The notes beneath the pieces were generated by a model. That model was not told the origin of the DNA, ran no database searches, and saw only the letters and a list, made by a program, of their open reading frames with translations. From IMG/VR virus record IMGVR_UViG_3300046501_000473: 34,964 nt of DNA; one strand, 5' to 3'. Made by a program: the position numbers and the translations under genes. Below, piece by piece: positions 11,712 to 24,592 of this stretch (position 1 is its first letter; each line of letters begins with the position of its first letter). The stretch comes from an uncultured virus (IMG/VR IMGVR_UViG_3300046501_000473) (lineage: Duplodnaviria > Heunggongvirae > Uroviricota > Caudoviricetes).

Positions 11712-12343
11712 GGCTCGGGGTGTCCCTTCGGGGTCTCGGTGTCGGCGGCGCGGGCGGCGAGGCCGGCGGCGATGGTGGTGACGGAGAGCGGCTCGGTGTC
11801 CGCGGTGGTCTTCTTCGCTGCCTGGATGCCGTCGACGAGCGCCAGCGCTTTGGGCGTGTAGTGGCGGGTGTGGCAGTGGACGGCGTGGGCGACGGCGGCG
11901 CGGAGGCCGTTGGGGGTGTGGATGGGTTCGCAGTGGTGGGCGCCTTGGGCGCAGGGGGTGAAGGTGTGGAAGGGGGCGGCGGAGTTGCCGTCGGGGGTGT
12001 AGGCGAGGAGGGCTCCGGAGGGGAAGGAGCGGGTGACGGTGCCGTCGGGGCGTTCCTGCCAGTCGCGGATGAGGCCGGCGGGCAGGTTGTGCGTACGGGC
12101 GGCGTAGTAGGCGGCGATCTGCAGTTCGGTGATGAACTCGGACTTGCGGACGAGGAGCGGGGCAGGCGGCTTGACCAGGGAGACACGCGGGCGCTTGGCG
12201 AGGGACACGGGCCGGTTGGCGGGCTTCGGAGCTGTCTTGCGGGCCGGCCGGGTGCTGGTGCGCTTCGCGGCCGTCTTCTTGGCGGTGGGCTTCGGGGCCG
12301 GTGCGGGGGTGGTGGCCTGCGCAGCGCGTGTTCTGGTGGTCAT
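11708..12343 (-). CDS. hypothetical protein with basic Lys/Ala/Pro-rich N-terminus
   Basis: PAPKPTAKKTAAKRTSTRPARKTAPKP followed by a globular region; coupled at both ends. Confidence 0.75.
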   Translation of the reverse strand: MTTRTRAAQATTPAPAPKPTAKKTAAKRTSTRPARKTAPKPANRPVSLAKRPRVSLVKPPAPLLVRKSEFITELQIAAYYAARTHNLPAGLIRDWQERPDGTVTRSFPSGALLAYTPDGNSAAPFHTFTPCAQGAHHCEPIHTPNGLRAAVAHAVHCHTRHYTPKALALVDGIQAAKKTTADTEPLSVTTIAAGLAARAADTETPKGHPEP

Positions 12344-16553: not shown

Positions 16554-17699
16554 ATGACCCACCCAGGCGCCGAAGAAGCGCGCGAAAAGTTGCTCGTTAA
16601 CCTGACTCCTGAGCTACGCCGTGACCTGCGCATCAGGGCAGCCGAGCACGGGCTGAACATGCAGGACGCCGTCGCCTCCGCCCTCAGTCTCTGGTACGAC
16701 ACCCCGGGCTCCCCGGACATCGAGACCAGGGGATCGAAGTCGTGGGGCGTGTTCCTTCCCGCTGGGGGCCCGCACCGGTTCGCAAGCGAGTGCGATTCCC
16801 GCAGTCTGACGAAGGTCCAGGGCATGGCCCAGGCCATCACCCTGTGGCTGAAGGCCCACCCATCCCCCGACGAGCGCCTCGTCGCCCAGCCCGTGAAGCG
16901 GATCCTGGTGGGCAACCAGAAGGGTGGTGTCGGCAAGACGTTCGTGGCCTCCGGACTCGCCCAGGCCATGGCGGAGGCCGGCCTGCGCGTTCTCCTCGTC
17001 GACTACGACCCCCAAGGGCACCTCACCAGCCGCCTGCAGATCCCTGGCCTTCCCACCGGGTCCGACAGTCTCCTCACGCACATGCTCGGCGAGGCCGACA
17101 AGCACCTGGCCCGCTCCCTCGTCGCGCTCCCCCACGAACGGTTCGGCGGCCGTCTCCACGTTCTGCCCGCGAGCAAGGACGCCTTCCTGATGGACGCCAA
17201 GCTGGCGCTCCTCCAGGTCGGCCGCGACACCTGCCTGGCCCGCGCGCTCGCCCCCGTCGAGGACTCCTACGACGTCATCGTCCTGGACGGCCCTCCGAAC
17301 CTGGGGCTGGCGATAGACCTCGCCATCAACTACGTCCAGCGTCGCCCGGGCGAGCTGATCGACCACTCCGGAATCCTGATGCCCGTCTGGTCGGACCGTT
17401 CCTCGTTCGACGCCTACGAGATGCTGAACGAGCAGATCGACACCCACAGCCGGATGACCGGAGCGGTCGTCGACCAGCTCGGGTTCGTCGTGAACGCCTA
17501 CGACTCCCGCAAGGGCGTTGTCACCCGCGCCTTCTACGACGGGTGGAGCGAGCTCACCACACCCGGTGTGCTGGCCACCCTGAAGGACGCCATCGAGGGC
17601 CGCGAGGCATCCGACTACCAGATCCCGCTGCTCGAGCACGCCCCTGACTCCGGTCAGGCGCAGGTCATGCGCGCCCTGGCCAAGGAGTTGGCGGCGTGA
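16554..17699 (+). CDS. parA: ParA-family partition ATPase with N-terminal tandem ribbon-helix-helix-like extension
   Basis: Deviant Walker A NQKGGVGKT, LLVDYDPQGHLT, DVIVLDGPPNLG; N-terminal LLVNLTPELRRDLRIRAAEHGLNMQDAVASAL. Confidence 0.93.
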   Translation: MTHPGAEEAREKLLVNLTPELRRDLRIRAAEHGLNMQDAVASALSLWYDTPGSPDIETRGSKSWGVFLPAGGPHRFASECDSRSLTKVQGMAQAITLWLKAHPSPDERLVAQPVKRILVGNQKGGVGKTFVASGLAQAMAEAGLRVLLVDYDPQGHLTSRLQIPGLPTGSDSLLTHMLGEADKHLARSLVALPHERFGGRLHVLPASKDAFLMDAKLALLQVGRDTCLARALAPVEDSYDVIVLDGPPNLGLAIDLAINYVQRRPGELIDHSGILMPVWSDRSSFDAYEMLNEQIDTHSRMTGAVVDQLGFVVNAYDSRKGVVTRAFYDGWSELTTPGVLATLKDAIEGREASDYQIPLLEHAPDSGQAQVMRALAKELAA

Positions 17700-18619
17700 G
17701 CTCGAAGAAGGTCGCCCCCGTCATCCCGGTCGTCGGCTCCGGCGGAAGCGGTGACCAGTCCCGCGAGGACCAGCTGCGGCAGTGGGAGGACAGCCAGCGC
17801 AAGCTACGCGAGCAGCATGCCGCGCCCGCGGCTGTGGTGGCGCAGGTCCCGGCACCTGCCGCACCCCCGGCCGCCGTTCTGGCCGTAGCGGAGCCCGCGG
17901 AGACGGAATCGGCGGGAACGGAATCTGTGCCGGCCGTCAGGACCGCGGCGACCGGGTACCTGCCGATGCCGGACTTCACCGAGCCGGACAGCGACGACCC
18001 GGCCACCCGGCTGGAGTTCTATGCGCGGGGCATCCTCGCCGTGCAGTACGCGGCCCGCGCCAACCACGAACGGGCCGAACAGCAGAAACTGATCGGGCTC
18101 GGGCTCCGGCTGCGGGCGATGAAGGTGGAGGAGCTGCACAAGGTCGCCGGACACGACACGTTCGGGGAGCTCGCCGAGGCCCGCTTCGGCATCAAGAAGC
18201 ACCAGGCCAACAACATCATCCGAGTGATGCCGGTGGCGCAGGCACTCGAGGACATCACCACCCAGGAGCTGAAGGAACGCCCCCTGCGGATTCTGGTGCC
18301 GATCCTCGAGACGCACGGCACCGAGGCGGTGCGGGAGACGTGGCTGGAGGCGGCCCGGCACGGCAACGTCATCGACAAGACGCTGCGGGATGCCGCAAAC
18401 TTCCTCGGCTACGGCCCGCCGAAGGAGCTCACCCAGGAGGCGGAGAAGAAGACGGGGCCGAAGGTGCTCACGCCGAGCGAGTCACTGAAGGCGGTGGAAC
18501 GGATCCGCGCCCTGGCGGAGACCGACCTCGCCCGGGCGCGTCGGGAGGCGGAGGAACTCGAGAGCGCGGTGCGTGAACTGCTGGAAGAGCTGGCCGGGAA
18601 CCTGGAGGAGCAGGCCTAG
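17696..18619 (+). CDS. putative partition DNA-binding partner of ParA (non-ParB-CTPase type)
   Basis: GTGA-coupled to parA; disordered N-terminus; TFGELAEARFGIKKHQANNII HTH-like region; C-terminal coiled coil; no ParB/Srx motif recognised. Confidence 0.7.
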   Translation: MSSKKVAPVIPVVGSGGSGDQSREDQLRQWEDSQRKLREQHAAPAAVVAQVPAPAAPPAAVLAVAEPAETESAGTESVPAVRTAATGYLPMPDFTEPDSDDPATRLEFYARGILAVQYAARANHERAEQQKLIGLGLRLRAMKVEELHKVAGHDTFGELAEARFGIKKHQANNIIRVMPVAQALEDITTQELKERPLRILVPILETHGTEAVRETWLEAARHGNVIDKTLRDAANFLGYGPPKELTQEAEKKTGPKVLTPSESLKAVERIRALAETDLARARREAEELESAVRELLEELAGNLEEQA

Positions 18620-18642: not shown

Positions 18643-18672
18643 CAAGGTGGTGACCACGTGGTCACCACCTTG
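18643..18672. repeat. perfect 30-bp palindrome, candidate parS
   Basis: CAAGGTGGTGACCAC|GTGGTCACCACCTTG just downstream of the par operon. Confidence 0.8.
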
Positions 18673-18691
18673 TCGTCTGTCTGACCCAAAG

Positions 18692-18713
18692 GTGGTGACC
18701 ACGTGGTCACCAC
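18692..18713. repeat. second copy, 22-bp palindrome, candidate parS
   Basis: GTGGTGACCAC|GTGGTCACCAC; centres 45 bp apart. Confidence 0.8.
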
Positions 18714-19082: not shown

Positions 19083-19529
19083 TCAGCCGGTGATCCGAAG
19101 GACGGGTATCCCGGCCTTCTTCGCCCGGCGCATGCAGTCCGCTGTGCCGCTGGAGTTCTGGTACGAGGCGGCCACACACAGAAGGGGGCCCTCGTCGACC
19201 ATCCCCTGGTTGCGGCGGTGTCCGGCGAGGGGGCAGTACTCGAGGCCGCGGCGGTTGATGCGCCGGTGTCCCGGCGGGCAGGTGGGCGCGCAGGGGCCGT
19301 TCCAGTCGGCGGGCCGGCGACGACGGGGAACTTCATGGCGGATGGCCCATGCGTCGCCGATCGTGTCTCCGCCTTCGGCGGTGCCGTGCATCAGCTCGAT
19401 GCCGTCGTAGCCGTCTTGGAGGGCGTCGTGCCACACGTCGAGGAGCGTGTCCTCGAGAAACTGCGGATCGGGCCACTTCCTCGAGCTGGTCAGCAGGATG
19501 AGCGCAAGGTGCGCGGTAGCGGTGTTCAT
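19083..19529 (-). CDS. SLOG-superfamily protein (YspA/DUF2493-like)
   Basis: ILLTSSRKW...LMHGTAEGGDTIGDAWA...PADW...AGHRRNQGMVD...SSGTADCMRRAKKAGIPV. Confidence 0.85.
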   Translation of the reverse strand: MNTATAHLALILLTSSRKWPDPQFLEDTLLDVWHDALQDGYDGIELMHGTAEGGDTIGDAWAIRHEVPRRRRPADWNGPCAPTCPPGHRRINRRGLEYCPLAGHRRNQGMVDEGPLLCVAASYQNSSGTADCMRRAKKAGIPVLRITG

Positions 19530-20317
19530 GCGACGTCGAAGGCGCGGCGTACCGGTGCCGCATCGCTGCCGCCGCGCTTGCGGGCGATCGCGGCCCGGCG
19601 GATCATCTCGGCGCGATCCACGGTCGGGGCGGTGAGCCGCTCGAGCTCGGCGACGGCATCGGTGAACGCGGTCTCCGGTTCCCGGTTGTGGGGGTCGGCC
19701 AGCATCCGGTCTTGGCGCTCGATGGCGTCGACGACGTACGGGTTGGTGGGCTCGCCGTCGGCCTGGGCCGCCTGGTGTGCTTCGAGGGTGCGCCGGTAGC
19801 CGGCCGATGCGGTCTCCCGGGTCCGCACGGGCGCCTCGGGGGCGGCTGACTCCGGTGCCGCGGCCTGCTGTTCTGCCGTGGCGACGTTCCCGACCGGCAG
19901 CACGCGGATCGTCCGGACGACCGGGCGGCCCATCTTGTCGTTGATCTGCTTGGCGAGCTGGCCGCCGAGGAGGCGGAGTTGCGCGGCGTAGGAGTGGCTG
20001 CCCGGGCGGAGGTCCAGGCGGCCGGTGTTCTCGTCGTAGTGGATGGGCTGCACCAAGCCGTCGTACTGCGGGCACAGGGTGGGCCACTGGTCGATGACGC
20101 TGCCGCCGGCGACGCCCGCTTCGAGGTGGATGTCGGCACCGAGACCAGCGATGGCGGAGGCCAGGCTGATGGGGTCGCGGCCGGAGCCGGTACGGGCGGT
20201 GCGCCGCGTCTTGGGTCGGCTCGGGGTGTTGGTGGGTGCGGTTCGGGCGGTGCTCTTGTAGGCGGCGAGGGCCTGCCGGGCGAGGTCCCGGCCGGACAAC
20301 TGCGGAGTGTCGGTCAC
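19526..20317 (-). CDS. dciA: DciA (DUF721) family replicative helicase loader homologue
   Basis: SGRDLARQAL...GRDPISLASAI...GSVIDQWP...PIHYD..GRLDL...SHSYAAQLRLLGGQLAKQINDKMG..VVRTIRVL, matching actinobacterial DciA; extra C-terminal domain. Confidence 0.85.
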   Translation of the reverse strand: MTDTPQLSGRDLARQALAAYKSTARTAPTNTPSRPKTRRTARTGSGRDPISLASAIAGLGADIHLEAGVAGGSVIDQWPTLCPQYDGLVQPIHYDENTGRLDLRPGSHSYAAQLRLLGGQLAKQINDKMGRPVVRTIRVLPVGNVATAEQQAAAPESAAPEAPVRTRETASAGYRRTLEAHQAAQADGEPTNPYVVDAIERQDRMLADPHNREPETAFTDAVAELERLTAPTVDRAEMIRRAAIARKRGGSDAAPVRRAFDVA

Positions 20318-20550
20318 GACTGGCCTCCCAAGAGGGCGCGGGCCACGGTGAGGGCGTGATGGTTGGCCGGGCTTCCGCACCAGGCGCACGGTTCGCGCTC
20401 GGTGTAGAGGTGGGCGGTGCGATCGATCTCCGCTTCGTGCTCCAGCCATTCGGCGACCGGGTCGGCGAGTCCAGCCAGGCGACCGGTGATCTCAGGGGCG
20501 ACATCGCGGAGGGTCTGGGCTGCGGCACGAAGTTCGTCGGCGGGTGCCAT
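20314..20550 (-). CDS. hypothetical protein
   Basis: 78 aa; AGGAG RBS; GTGA-coupled to dciA. Confidence 0.7.
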   Translation of the reverse strand: MAPADELRAAAQTLRDVAPEITGRLAGLADPVAEWLEHEAEIDRTAHLYTEREPCAWCGSPANHHALTVARALLGGQS

Positions 20551-20561
20551 CGGGACTCCTG

Positions 20562-22043
20562 TCAGAAGGCGGGGGTGAGTCGGCGGTCGGCGGCGAGGGC
20601 CTGGTCGACGAGCCAGTTGGTGTACAGGCGGCGGGCGTCCCGCTCGGTCATGCCGTTGGCGAGGGCACTGGTGATCAGCGACAGGTCGGCGGATGCTTCG
20701 GCGCGGACCGCCTTGATCAGTTCGCGGTCCAGGTCCTCGAGTTCGGTGCGGGTGTCCTCAGTGATGTCCCAGCACTCCCCGGCGGGGACCGGGCCCGCGG
20801 CGATCTCCTGGTTGCGGCGGAACGCTTCCCGGACGAGATCCTGCACGCTCACGCTGGCCGGGCGCCGGTCGCCGCCGTGGACTTCGTCGTAGCCGGTGTG
20901 CCGGGCCTGCTCCTGCACGCGGGACTCCTGCCACGCCAGTACGGCGGTCTTGCGGCGCTCGGGGGTGGTGTACAGCAGGTGGAGGTTGCCGAGTCGGTCG
21001 GCGAGCAGCCCGGACGGGCGGCGCACCTGGGCGGCGAGGATCGGGCGTTCCTGCTCTGCGATGGCCTGGACCTCGAGGGCCGTCCACCCGGCATCAGCGG
21101 CGTGGCGGATGATCCAGGCGATCCGGGGGATGGATGCGTCCTTGAGCCACGGCACGAGCTGGATGAGTTCGCGGGCGAGCTGGTAGCGGCGGCCGGTCTT
21201 GTTCAGCTTCTTCGGCCCGCGGTTGGACTTCTTCTGGGTGGGGGACTTCGCTTCCCCGCTTGCGAGCTTGCTCTCAGGGGGGGAGTAAGTGTTAGCCGCA
21301 GAAGAAGACGCTGAGGTACCACCCTCCATTGGGGTGCAACGCGCCCGACCCGAAACAGGGGTCCGACGGGGGCGGCGGCGGGTCTTCCGGGCGGCCTTCT
21401 TCGCGAGCTTCCCGAGCAGGCTCCGGTGCTCCGGGGCGGCCCCGACCGGGCGCCGTTGCACCCCTGCACCGACGGTGCGGATCCCGAGCGCCTCATCGAA
21501 CTCGAGGGGGATGACCCGCTCGAACACGGACGCCTGGTTCGGCTGCGAGGAGAGCCGGGTGCCCTTCACCCGGTACACGAGCAGCCCGGCCTCGCGGAGC
21601 ATCGACAGGTGGTACTGGATGGTGCGCTCCGACGCCTTCAGCTTCCGCATCAGGTAGTCGATCCCGGGCCGGCACTCCTTCAGCGCGGCGATCTCCTGCG
21701 CGATGGCGAGGGTCGTTGCACCCCACCGCGGGCCGTGGCTGCGGGAGGGCGTGTAGAGGCCGCTCCCGGCGACCCAGTGGACGGCTTGCATCCAGGAGTG
21801 GGCGCATGTGGCGATGCGGCCGGTCGTGGCGTGCAGCCACTGGCTAGCTGCGGTCACCAGCAGGCGCGCGCCACGACCGGTCTGACCTGCACTGTAGTCG
21901 TACGCGCGTTCGATTTCGACAGTAGGGGCGTGCGTGTCCGGGGTGGATTCGGTGCACGGGGTGCCACCCGACCGGGGGGAGATTCCTCGCGAATCGCCCA
22001 CGGTGGAGTTGCCAAGCTGACAAGAAGGGGTGCGGTGCTGCAC
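20562..22043 (-). CDS. putative plasmid replication initiator (wHTH-containing Rep)
   Basis: RPGIDYLMRKLKASERTIQYHLSMLREAGLL winged-helix motif; large size; position in an operon with dciA, next to par. Start chosen at GTG 22043 (GAAGGCAGG upstream) is uncertain. Confidence 0.65.
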   Translation of the reverse strand: MQHRTPSCQLGNSTVGDSRGISPRSGGTPCTESTPDTHAPTVEIERAYDYSAGQTGRGARLLVTAASQWLHATTGRIATCAHSWMQAVHWVAGSGLYTPSRSHGPRWGATTLAIAQEIAALKECRPGIDYLMRKLKASERTIQYHLSMLREAGLLVYRVKGTRLSSQPNQASVFERVIPLEFDEALGIRTVGAGVQRRPVGAAPEHRSLLGKLAKKAARKTRRRPRRTPVSGRARCTPMEGGTSASSSAANTYSPPESKLASGEAKSPTQKKSNRGPKKLNKTGRRYQLARELIQLVPWLKDASIPRIAWIIRHAADAGWTALEVQAIAEQERPILAAQVRRPSGLLADRLGNLHLLYTTPERRKTAVLAWQESRVQEQARHTGYDEVHGGDRRPASVSVQDLVREAFRRNQEIAAGPVPAGECWDITEDTRTELEDLDRELIKAVRAEASADLSLITSALANGMTERDARRLYTNWLVDQALAADRRLTPAF

Positions 22044-22080
22044 TATGTACCTGCCTTCGTTGATGGCCTTGCGGGAACGC

Positions 22081-22232
22081 AAAAGCCCTCGGTGGCGGTG
22101 AAGTGGTTCGTGGAGAACCTGTTAGTCCGCTCGCTCGGGTTGGCGCCCGGCGGGCCTTAGATCGGCATTGGCGTGCTGATCCGTGGTACGAGGGCCGCAG
22201 AGGCCCGGAGGTGTTTGGCGCACCAGTCCGGG
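22081..22232. ncRNA. structured RNA (rep leader/antisense RNA candidate) with three TTGGCG loops
   Basis: Outer stem GCCCTCG 22085-22091/CGAGGGC 22189-22195; arm GGTTC/GAACC; TTGGCG loops at 22140, 22168 and 22215, each closing a stem. Confidence 0.7.
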
Positions 22233-22272
22233 ACGCGGCCAGGCGGTCGAGGAATCTCCCGCCCAGAAAGCG

Positions 22273-22947
22273 CTACGTCATCTGGTCTCTCTTTCGTGGT
22301 TGTCGAGCACCGTCCCCGAGGCGCGGGGTACGGGAGTCATCGGCGGCCAGCCACCGCTCCTGGTAGGCCAGGGCGAGCGGCAGGCAGCTGTGCCGCGTGT
22401 GGAACACGGCGGTGTTGGACCCGAGGTCGGGACGAATCAGGTTGTCTCCCGGGAACAACATGCTGTGCTCCCGGGGCGTTACGGCCTGGCCGCAGCCGTG
22501 GCAGGCGCCGTGGACCAGCCGCATCTCGAAGTCAATCCGCTTACCCTCGATGGCCATCACGCGGTCCATGAACACTTCGCGGCAGGGCGGCAGGTCGCCG
22601 CAGTGGCTGCACACCGCGTAGTGCTTGGGGAGAACCAGGTACTTCCAGGACGCCGGGGCGGTCCCCACCTTCAGCGGGTCCTTGGTGCGGTCGGTCCGGT
22701 TATGGATGTACAGCGGGCGACCGTTCCACGTCTCATGGTCAGGCTCACCGGCTGCCTGCCAGGCCTGGACGAAGCTGGTCTTCCAGTTGGCGAGGTTGAT
22801 TTCCTCGGTGCGGACGATGAGCAGCGGCTTGTAGTTCCACGCCACCACGGTGCCGGGGACAATCTCGGCGGCCGTGACGACGGTGGTGTCCTGCTCGTCG
22901 GGGGACCACTCGTCATACGGACGGGCGGCATAGCCCCGGGGGCTCAT
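22273..22947 (-). CDS. hypothetical protein with CxxC motifs
   Basis: 224 aa; VCSHCGDLPPC, ACHGCG, FHTRHSC. Confidence 0.75.
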   Translation of the reverse strand: MSPRGYAARPYDEWSPDEQDTTVVTAAEIVPGTVVAWNYKPLLIVRTEEINLANWKTSFVQAWQAAGEPDHETWNGRPLYIHNRTDRTKDPLKVGTAPASWKYLVLPKHYAVCSHCGDLPPCREVFMDRVMAIEGKRIDFEMRLVHGACHGCGQAVTPREHSMLFPGDNLIRPDLGSNTAVFHTRHSCLPLALAYQERWLAADDSRTPRLGDGARQPRKRDQMT

Positions 22948-23060
22948 CGTGTGCTGTGGGTTGAAGTGACAGGACCCGTCTGCATCGCCGGTGTGATCTT
23001 CACGGCGGTGTCCGGGGTTCGACTGTCTGATTGCCCGGGTGTCCGGGTACGCTCTGCCAT
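22944..23060 (-). CDS. possible leader peptide (38 aa)
   Basis: GAGGTG RBS, ATG 23060, stop overlapping the ATG of the next gene (ATGA). Confidence 0.4.
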   Translation of the reverse strand: MAERTRTPGQSDSRTPDTAVKITPAMQTGPVTSTHSTR

Positions 23061-23098
23061 GTCGGCACCTCTACTTCGCAAGGGTCGTGGTGTCGGCC

Positions 23099-23143
23099 CG
23101 GCCCCGCACCTGGTGTTCGCTGCACCGGGATACTGCGGGGCCG
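23099..23143. other. intergenic stem-loop
   Basis: CGGCCCCGCA/TGCGGGGCCG outer stem with inner CCTGGTG/CACCGGG and loop TTCGCTG. Confidence 0.65.
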
Positions 23144-23273
23144 TTCCTATTGTCTTGTGAGCCCCAGCCTGACCTGAATGGTCGTCTGGTGCTAGGCGCA
23201 GCCTATCCGTTGACCCTGCCACTTGTCCCACCCTCTTCCCCCGTGTCTCTAGTCCGACTTGTCACACCGGAGT

Positions 23274-23714
23274 TCAGTGCTCACGGCCGTCCTCGCCGTC
23301 CGCGGGATGCCACTCCGGGGCCCGCTCCGCCGCCACCCGCGACTGGCCCGCCATCCCGCCCATCGCCAGGAACCCCGCCTCCGTCAACTGCCCCTGGAGA
23401 CGCGCCAGCTTGTCCCGGTTGAACCGCGGCGCGTTCATCAACTGGCCCGCCCGCACCCCCACCACGAGCGCCCGATCCCAAATCTCCTGCACCACCGCCG
23501 GATCCACCCCCGGGAACAAGTCCGCCGGAAGCTTCCGCGGCGTGCCCACCGTGTCCAACTGCGCGGCCGCGATCAGCCCCGCGATATGCGCGCCCGTCGA
23601 CACCGCCCGCCCGGCGAGCACGAAGTCCACCGCCGACCCGGCCGGCGGCTCGGCGGCCGAGGCGCTCGAGCTGGTGGAGGCGACGGAAGACGACGGGGTG
23701 GGGATCTGGCTCAT
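23274..23714 (-). CDS. hypothetical protein
   Basis: 146 aa, ATGA-coupled. Confidence 0.75.
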   Translation of the reverse strand: MSQIPTPSSSVASTSSSASAAEPPAGSAVDFVLAGRAVSTGAHIAGLIAAAQLDTVGTPRKLPADLFPGVDPAVVQEIWDRALVVGVRAGQLMNAPRFNRDKLARLQGQLTEAGFLAMGGMAGQSRVAAERAPEWHPADGEDGREH

Positions 23715-24592
23715 GCTGCGGCCTCCAGGCGTGCGGTACGGATGGTGGTGGGGAAGGGAAGCGGCTCAGCGACGTACGGAGCGACGAGGCGGAGTCTCGG
23801 ACGCGGGGAGCGGCGCGCCGAGGCCGCGGCGGACGGGGTGTGGCGCGGCCTCGGCCCGCGACGCGGGGCCGGCTGGCCCGGCCACAGGTTGAGCACCAGC
23901 TGCTGCGGGGCGCCCGCGGCAATCCGGCGCTGCCGGGCCCCGTCCGTCGTCGGCGCCGCCGCCACCGGCCACTGGCCATCCGGAACAATCCGGCACCGGC
24001 GCGGCAGCAGATCATGCGCGGCCGCCACCTGCAGCAGCTGCTCCCGGGTCGCAGTCTCCTTGTTCAACCCCAGCAGCGTGCACAACACCGACCGGTTCCA
24101 GTTCGCCGTCCGGACATCCATGCCCGCCCGGTACGCCACCAGCTCCTCATCCGTCTCCCGCGCCAACGCCGCCAACACCGCCTGCTTCTGTACGGTGCGC
24201 GCCTCCGCCAAATCCTTCCGGGCAGGCAGCGGAGCGTTCGTACGGCGGGCAATCAGTGTTCGATGACGGTCCAGAGCCAACTCCCCGCCCCAGATCCCAT
24301 CCGGCTCCGTCAGCTTCCCGTCCGCAGTTTCCGCGTTCGCGTACACCCGGCAGGCGTCCACGATCGGACACCGGGCGCACACCGCCTTCGCAGCCCGCTC
24401 CCGCGCCAGACGGTCCTTCTGCGGCTCCCCGCCATCCTCAGACGACGACGACCACGCATCCAGCGACAGCCCCTCATCCCCCAGCGCCCGCCCGGCCAGG
24501 TCCGGATCCCAGTGCGGGGCACACCCGCGGTAGTTGAAGAACCGGTGCTCGTAGAAGGCGGCAGCCGCCTCGATCGGATCCAGCGTGCTCAT
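23711..24592 (-). CDS. extended WhiB-family regulator with additional HTH-like C-terminal region
   Basis: YRGC...(long insert)...AKAVCARCPIVDACRVYA...DGIWGG; then VLAALARETDEELVAYRAGMDVRTANW. Confidence 0.8.
   Translation of the reverse strand: MSTLDPIEAAAAFYEHRFFNYRGCAPHWDPDLAGRALGDEGLSLDAWSSSSEDGGEPQKDRLARERAAKAVCARCPIVDACRVYANAETADGKLTEPDGIWGGELALDRHRTLIARRTNAPLPARKDLAEARTVQKQAVLAALARETDEELVAYRAGMDVRTANWNRSVLCTLLGLNKETATREQLLQVAAAHDLLPRRCRIVPDGQWPVAAAPTTDGARQRRIAAGAPQQLVLNLWPGQPAPRRGPRPRHTPSAAASARRSPRPRLRLVAPYVAEPLPFPTTIRTARLEAAA

Follow-up and report, generated by a model that had tools for sequence, protein, structure and literature searches.

The mechanisms of the IncI/IncB, R1, ColE1, P1/P7 c4 and P4 CI systems are the background for the comparison made here. 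Descriptions of replication control in Streptomyces theta plasmids and in actinomycete phage-plasmids have been framed around Rep and adjacent “iteron” DNA, where an iteron-type origin is built of direct repeats of ~17–22 bp that are bound by Rep, with the repeat co-varying with the DNA-binding helix of Rep. The described systems closest to our locus are the Inc RNA and repY-repZ of the IncI-alpha plasmid ColIb-P9, RNAI and repB-repA of IncB (Praszkier), and CopA and tap-repA of R1 (Blomberg 1992). The loop motif 5'-rUUGGCG-3' of the ColIb-P9 Inc RNA, to which the original prediction for this DNA had likened its hairpin loops, is real, going by the title of the paper that describes it (Asano 1998, in the reference list of PMC10724649). 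The literature searched, which did not include the original pZL12 paper, holds no description of the cassette presented below.

We analyzed a stretch of 34,964 nucleotides from an uncultured virus (IMG/VR record IMGVR_UViG_3300046501_000473), which as a whole is referred to as the window. It has a G+C content of 69% and carries on the − strand a run of genes for an ERF recombinase, two WhiB-like proteins and several unknowns, next to which lie ORF 22947..22273 (phrog_26381, unknown function), a gap of 190–230 nt, a Rep-like wHTH ORF (22082/22043..20562, −) and a DciA-like gene (20449..19526, −). The Rep ORF gives weak HTH and replication-initiator matches, with the DciA-like gene directly downstream; a ParA-like gene and two tyrosine integrases are found elsewhere in the window. 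The 501 bases around the cassette match Streptomyces phage ZL12 (2 records, 73.6% identity) and also 39 Streptomyces plasmids, many of ~87–93 kb. Judged by these matches the window is a pZL12-like Streptomyces phage-plasmid. The genes upstream of the gap vary among six annotated relatives (hypothetical proteins, DUF6221, DNA adenine methylase), and the gap itself has no annotated feature.

The element occurs once in the nearest virus record (G001). Another relative, pSAM1 of S. ambofaciens ATCC 23877, has the corresponding stretch at about 47,613–47,820 of NZ_CP012383.1, and existing transcriptomes of that strain include this plasmid (PMC11302927). The closest relative of the Rep protein in the genome collection (L003, 63% identity) comes from a record titled Leifsonia sp., which may be a mislabel or a host jump; all other Rep-relative matches are Streptomyces or Kitasatospora. 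Elsewhere in the window, two perfect copies, 45 nt apart, of a 25–30 nt palindrome (CAAGGTGGTGACCACGTGGTCACCACCTTG, 18643–18713) stand directly 3' of ORF 17648..18619, itself downstream of parA. These palindromes are probably a partition (parS-like) site.

Structure and conservation of the hairpin cassette

Three TTGGCG-capped hairpins are present on the + strand where the original prediction had placed them (Table 1), and so are the GGTTC/GAACC arm, the GCCCTCG/CGAGGGC pairing (22086–22092/22189–22195) and the TTTT of the rep strand (22085–22082). Hairpin C has the core CGGG-TTGGCG-CCCG (22136–22149), extended by an outer GCTC/GGGC helix. Hairpin B reads GATCGGCA-TTGGCG-TGCTGATC with one G.T pair on the + strand, and hairpin A reads CCCGGAGGTGT-TTGGCG-CACCAGTCCGGG at 22204–22232, enclosed by an outer GGCCGC/GCGGCC helix (22193–22198/22235–22240). 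Other pairings compete with the outer stem GCCCTCG/CGAGGGC. The proposed cloverleaf, or a tRNA-like fold, is not supported, with ARAGORN calling 0 tRNA or tmRNA genes in 21800–22500. A scan against Rfam, C4-like families included, likewise returned 0 matches at the gathering score over the whole window; at E ≤ 10 it gave only the chance-level matches AS1726 (E = 0.49), mir-8791 (5.7) and c4-a1b1 (9.7), the last of which (clan CL00128) scores 10.2 bits against a gathering score of 46.7.

Table 1. Coordinates of the features in and around the cassette (positions in the window).
Feature	Position	Strand	Remarks
Rep-like wHTH ORF	20562..22043	−	leader part (22043 to ~21880) fused in frame to conserved Rep core
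16-nt inverted repeat, 94% complementary	21974–21989 (+) with 22248–22263 (P0)		only in the window's closest relatives
Candidate countertranscript promoter	22017–22046	+	−35 CTGACA 22017–22022, 18-nt spacer, −10 CACTAT 22041–22046
Shine-Dalgarno-like GAAGGCAGG and GTG start	22059–22051 and 22043–22041	−	start of leader/rep frame
Small hairpin TTGCG-GGAA-CGCAA	22069–22082	+	between candidate start and conserved core; sequence varies among relatives
A-run and GC-rich P1 region	22083–22104	+	rep strand reads ...GAGGGCUUUU; candidate weak terminator/attenuator arm
GGTTC-N5-GAACC arm	22105–22119	+	stem sequence conserved, loop variable
Hairpin C	22129–22155	+	loop TTGGCG 22140–22145; helices 2 and 3 of covariation analysis
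Hairpin B	22160–22181	+	8-bp stem, loop TTGGCG 22168–22173
Hairpin A	22193–22240	+	loop TTGGCG 22215–22220; helices 5–7
P0 hairpin GGCGG...CCGCC	22242–22263	+	inserted hairpin with fourth loop-word copy in many relatives
Mini-ORF box: purine-rich stretch, then ATG ACG TAG	22273–22290	−	TAG is also the stop of ORF 22947..22273

The hexamer itself is common. TTGGCG occurs 31 times in the window against 21.7 expected (31 is reached in 3 of 100 shuffles). The recurrence of any hexamer three times in 166 nt was set aside as evidence, being reached in 68 of 300 shuffles for the window and in 22–104 of 300 for the elements with a count of 3. Since that count is not significant, we used instead a statistic on hairpin loops: three separate loops sharing one common hexamer arose in 2 of 3000 dinucleotide shuffles. 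The single-sequence folding energies are within the shuffle range (z of −1.34 on the + strand, −1.89 on the − strand and −1.26 for 22053–22266), and the case thus rests on the comparison between relatives. Clusters of three TTGGCG also occur at 12195–12284 (+) and 24161–24211 (−), in coding sequence and, by eye, without hairpins; one falls in an Ala/Lys-rich stretch, the other in a WhiB-like gene, and both are probably codon-driven.

This comparison covered 80 loci that code for Rep relatives, plus 8 regions taken from annotated records. In an initial alignment of 11 regions upstream of rep the three hairpins fall into register, with stems changed and loops either conserved or jointly changed. 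Folding nine close relatives together with RNAalifold gave −53.6 kcal/mol for the + strand and −39.0 for the rep strand, with 10 and 11 pairs, respectively, showing compensatory changes. A covariance model (R1) built from 22080–22246 of the + strand then matched 37 of 89 sources at E ≤ 0.007, with one match per source, and all 37 matches lie upstream of rep on the strand opposite to it. In the alignment fitted to this model 95.2% of the cells are paired, compared with 77.0% in column shuffles; both-side changes occur in 34 of 37 pairs, and the covariation score is reached by 0 of 500 shuffles. Sliding the partners by 1–3 columns lowers the pairing to 22–53% (at most 53.4%). These pairing and covariation numbers lean toward the structure to which the alignment was fitted. 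Hairpin B (helix 4) shows changes on both sides in 8 of 8 pairs, and the GGTTC/GAACC arm (helix 1) is paired in 99.5% of the cells, with a both-side change in some sequence for 5 of 5 pairs. A sequence profile adds L059, L058, L044 and L080, and ten further loci missed by R1 have at least three hairpin loops with a common word upstream of rep. The alignment, the model and the covariation show both loops and stems to be conserved, with compensating substitutions, ahead of homologous rep genes, in support of the original prediction.

Two of its finer points stood only in part. The G-U bias toward the + strand applies to the window's near relatives and not to the family as a whole, in which G.U vs. 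A.C over all hairpins totals 42 for the + strand and 57 for the − strand. A hand tally of the word-bearing hairpins alone gives ~31 (+) vs. 19 (−), and another G.U/A.C count, 62 to 17, comes from an alignment fitted to the + strand. The counts single out neither strand, and the asymmetry was rejected as a strand test. The attenuator (outer stem followed by UUUU) is possible in the window's own group, but in the distant group the U run is poor or missing; the P1 region forms a clear hairpin there, e.g., in L020.

On the far side of the hairpins, P0 may end the + strand RNA and/or the upstream operon; the terminator scan found it to be without a U run and returned no U-rich terminator for the + strand RNA. 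The mini-ORF box of two codons is conserved as GGAG-N5-RTG-ACK-TAG beside unrelated upstream genes, being free-standing in pZL12 and forming the end of unrelated upstream genes in other relatives. On the rep-strand RNA the 16-nt inverted repeat could pair P0 with leader codons 19–24; its confinement to the closest relatives makes its generality doubtful.

The loop words differ between elements and agree within them. UUGGCG fills three loops on the + strand in 7 elements (the window, L001, L002 from pZL12, and L083–L086), and GUGGCA/CUGGCA loops are found in 4. The exact complement CGCCAA, i.e., UUGGCG on the rep strand, occupies the loops of 11 elements with the same architecture. Other words are CUGCUAA, CGGCUAA (x3), GUGGCA (x3), CUCCCAA and CUGCAA, and among the loci missed by R1 there are UUGGCA (L019, L026, L060–62), CUGACAA (L033, L046, L056) and CGCCAA (L050). 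A hexamer is common to three loops in 14 of 37 elements and to two loops in another 14, and 12 of the 34 elements listed carry the word a fourth time, at −19 to −21, in an extra hairpin within P0. The cassettes of L007 and L008 are ~95% identical, yet one and the same G/A substitution separates them in each of the four loops (UUGACG vs. UUGGCG); their other differences between P0 and P1 are three single positions and, in hairpin B, a stem swap that is compensated. Within an element the loops are thus kept alike and can switch together.

These two loci are also mosaics. Their upstream genes are unrelated (~40% identity), the cassette and the N-terminal half of rep are 84–97% identical, and the C-terminal half of rep is ~45–58% identical. 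The recombination breakpoints flank the control region. Since the similar block spans the cassette and the N-terminal half of rep, both can be inherited together. One element, L068, mixes the polarities in a single RNA (CGCCAA, CGUCAA and UUGGCC loops), and loop-loop pairing within one molecule would therefore be allowed there. The complement of the loop word has no consistent position within −400 to +1200 of the element, and no pseudoknot partner near the rep ribosome-binding site was found; TTGGCG at +222 to +229 is found in only 3 of the 7 elements of the window's group. In the two cases of co-resident replicons (L017/L063, L043/L074) the partners have no detectable cassette.

Leader reading frame and promoter-like motif

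The cassette lies immediately upstream of a translation start that feeds rep. On the rep strand of the window the layout is GAAGGCAGG-N6-GTG (22059–22041), and a purine-rich stretch 5–12 nt before an NTG is present at all loci inspected. Measured on the rep strand, the start comes ~37 nt after the element, with a distance of 26–55 nt in 35 of 37 elements and of 65 and 108 nt in the other two. A composite motif, CAT-NN-TG-N18-NNY-CAG, is found in a single copy within the 1300 nt that precede the Rep core at 66 of 87 loci, compared with 4 matches in 643 kb of control sequence. The ORF opened by this NTG (GTG in 49, TTG in 12, CTG in 3 and ATG in 2 of the 66) has a stop that overlaps the start of the rep frame (NTGA) at 42 of the 66 loci and is fused in frame to rep at 23, the window included; one locus (L067) has neither. 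The leaders range from 25 to 377 codons. That the frame stays open up to the rep start across such different lengths shows that the leader is translated and that Rep synthesis is fed from it. Taking GTG 22043 as a rep start only, with no leader, was rejected for the family, since the reading frame that begins at the motif does not stay open as far as the Rep core in the distant group.

In the window itself, the in-frame GC3 is ~0.70 from 22043 to ~21880 and 0.87–1.0 thereafter, a step consistent with a leader under weak constraint that is joined to the Rep core. Public records start rep 100–180 nt further downstream or without the leader ORF, and the motif at 66 of 87 loci corrects this annotation of the rep start. 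Within the low-GC3 leader part there is a block conserved at the DNA level, TCGAAA-N17-TACAGT (21891–21925, −; TACAGT at 21896–21891), which in frame reads EIERAYDY and could be an internal rep promoter.

Read on the opposite strand, the composite leader-start motif of these 66 loci is a promoter-like motif. The family consensus on the + strand is CTGRNN-N18-CANNAT-G, with fixed spacing and pointing into the hairpins; CTGACA is present in 21 of 37 elements and CACTAT in 18 of 37, and the first position of the −10 box is C in 37 of 37. With their fixed spacing and a spacer that is not conserved, the two short boxes resemble a sigma-70-type promoter, which would place the start of a + strand RNA near 22053. 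The rep-strand codons over the −35 box (TCT TGT CAG CTT) are of a rare type at this G+C, suggesting a constraint at the DNA level. The −10 box contains the complement of the start codon, so the conservation of the two boxes is confounded and could stem wholly from the start and the N-terminal leader codons. Both boxes fail a strict consensus scan, and a strict promoter and terminator scan of 21700–22600 gave 0 sites. A search of sequencing runs with 20500–23500 as query turned up no RNA run.

Proposed kissing-loop control and the alternatives to it

The conserved stretch is most likely a switch made of RNA, which probably acts together with an RNA of opposite orientation to set copy number and to determine which related plasmids can coexist. 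In the reading that we favor, with confidence a little above an even balance, a countertranscript and the leader would control rep translation by kissing loops, in a manner like that of IncI and IncFII plasmids without homology to them. Positions 22053–22266 would form a self-contained cassette for RNA-level control of the replication gene. On the rep (−) strand this cassette would be the leader that precedes the Shine-Dalgarno sequence and GTG 22043, and the candidate promoter overlapping the leader start codon would most likely give rise to a + strand countertranscript of ~210 nt. The three UUGGCG loops of this RNA would kiss the three CGCCAA loops of the leader, and the duplex would spread to the Shine-Dalgarno region, blocking leader translation and limiting Rep and thereby copy number. 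Since both RNA partners are read from the same DNA, the loop word would act as a specificity label, and if the word switched in every loop together, a new compatibility type would arise. This mechanism accounts for the fixed position before the start, the co-varying stems, the occurrence of the word in either polarity and its rapid concerted change.

A perfectly complementary antisense RNA does not by itself need identical loops, and their sameness may point to another partner. It is possible that identical loops allow any-to-any kissing, or that they reflect a step-by-step escape from a co-resident relative when few loop words are workable. We put forward a more specific version tentatively and with some doubt: the word would serve as a barcode, in which the 3–4 same-word hairpins of the leader kiss the identical loops of the countertranscript in any combination, giving multivalent and possibly ultrasensitive control, with a single joint switch of the word (like that separating L007 and L008) founding a new compatibility group and the whole acting as a portable module. 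The Rep of pZL12 has 26% identity to the window's Rep and yet the same cassette and word lie upstream of it; the cassette and leader start can thus front unrelated Rep proteins.

The main rival is a single trans-acting partner, i.e., a leader on the rep strand alone, with no countertranscript, whose identical loops bind a plasmid-encoded RNA-binding protein or a small RNA made elsewhere that represses or activates translation of the leader ORF. Such a partner would predict the identical loops of each element and the concerted change in the four loops of L007 and L008; it would suit the translation start 26–55 nt downstream in 35 of 37 elements, and the promoter-like motif may then be merely the start codon and leader codons. 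We nonetheless regard it as unlikely. The complementary word, carried by 11 and more elements, would call for an entirely different ligand, and both polarities of the word, which are neutral for a sense/antisense pair, are hard to explain with a protein ligand. There is no complement of the word at a consistent place nearby, CGCCAA and TTGGCG elsewhere in the window are inside coding regions without hairpins (by eye), and the neighboring genes differ among plasmids with the same word.

The + strand RNA, transcribed away from rep, might also be a stand-alone non-coding RNA that does not regulate rep, either a trans-acting RNA of the immunity type (P1 c4, P4 CI) aimed at phage genes or a primer or origin RNA as in cluster A mycobacteriophages. 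The promoter-like motif on the + strand, the phage-plasmid nature of the element and a weak resemblance to c4-a1b1 (E = 9.7) would suit this view, as would the existence of RNA-based prophage replication in actinobacteriophages (PMC7157519). Against it, the c4 match is far below the threshold (10.2 vs. 46.7 bits), the element is always tied to the rep translation start whichever gene lies upstream, a Rep protein and a DciA-like gene are present, and no repeated complementary targets are evident in the window, which together leave this explanation improbable in our estimation.

Finally, the repeats could act as DNA, in an origin or iteron-like array whose hexamers, exposed on hairpins (extruded or single-stranded), would be recognized by Rep, in line with proposals for the inverted-repeat “iterons” of other Streptomyces plasmids. 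In Streptomyces theta plasmids such as pWTY27, non-coding DNA beside rep binds Rep and has short direct and inverted repeats (PMC3583192); repeats alike within a plasmid and different between plasmids are typical of iterons, the third group has a regular spacing of 36–38 nt, and the L007/L008 cassette is inherited together with the N-terminal half of Rep. We consider this reading very improbable, because the loop word does not follow the recognition helix of Rep: the helix LSERSVEYHLGMLREAGLL is almost invariant across loci with CUGCUAA, CGGCUAA, CUCCCAA, CGCCAA, CUGCAA, UUGGCG, UUGGCA and CUGACAA and is identical in L007 and L008, whereas the Rep of pZL12 has a different helix with the same word; moreover, only 6–7 nt are repeated, the stems differ and co-vary, for which a duplex-DNA site has no need, and there are no direct repeats of at least 12 nt and no AT-rich stretch (GC 0.625–0.655).

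Comparison with known control systems

If kissing-loop control by a countertranscript is borne out, two uses follow from the loop words. Identical loops that switch jointly would be a natural test of how loop words define plasmid compatibility, and sets of mutually compatible replicons with tunable copy number might be built from them for Streptomyces engineering.

The resemblance to the I-complex and IncFII controls would be a functional one. With P1/P7 c4 and P4 CI the cassette shares the character of a structured RNA of phage-plasmids or satellites in which short loop words set specificity, but the match to c4-a1b1 has an E of 9.7 and the cassette is tied to rep rather than to an antirepressor operon. 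ColE1 RNA I/RNA II likewise has three stem-loops, loops that start the pairing, and loop changes that alter compatibility. The ColE1 pair, however, controls primer formation and not the translation of Rep, and its three loops differ from each other, while the cassette has no Rfam match and comes with a Rep protein.

Among the closest systems is CopA/CopT-tap-repA of the IncFII plasmid R1. Its antisense RNA targets the leader in front of tap, a leader peptide whose translation is coupled to that of repA, and more than one stem-loop takes part. The loops of CopA are not identical to one another, there is no homology, and the candidate antisense promoter of the cassette differs in overlapping the leader start codon.

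ColIb-P9 and IncB (the I-complex) are likewise among the closest. Both there and here a UUGGCG/CGCCAA hexamer is displayed on a hairpin loop (in the window CGCCAA three times on the rep strand), Rep can be made only by way of a leader ORF whose end is coupled to the start of rep, the control region is just upstream of the leader ribosome-binding site, and the loop word is the likely incompatibility determinant. The cassette differs in having no sequence or Rfam relationship to these systems, in its 3–4 same-loop hairpins where the known systems have one, and in lacking a detected loop-to-RBS pseudoknot partner of the kind found in the I-complex (and IncL/M). It further differs in the use of the word in either polarity, in its residence in an actinomycete phage-plasmid, in the fusion of the window's leader ORF to rep, and in an antisense RNA that is as yet a candidate. 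If the proposed mechanism is true, the cassette would be a second, independent instance of the enterobacterial IncI/IncB/IncFII strategy, arrived at with the very same loop hexamer.
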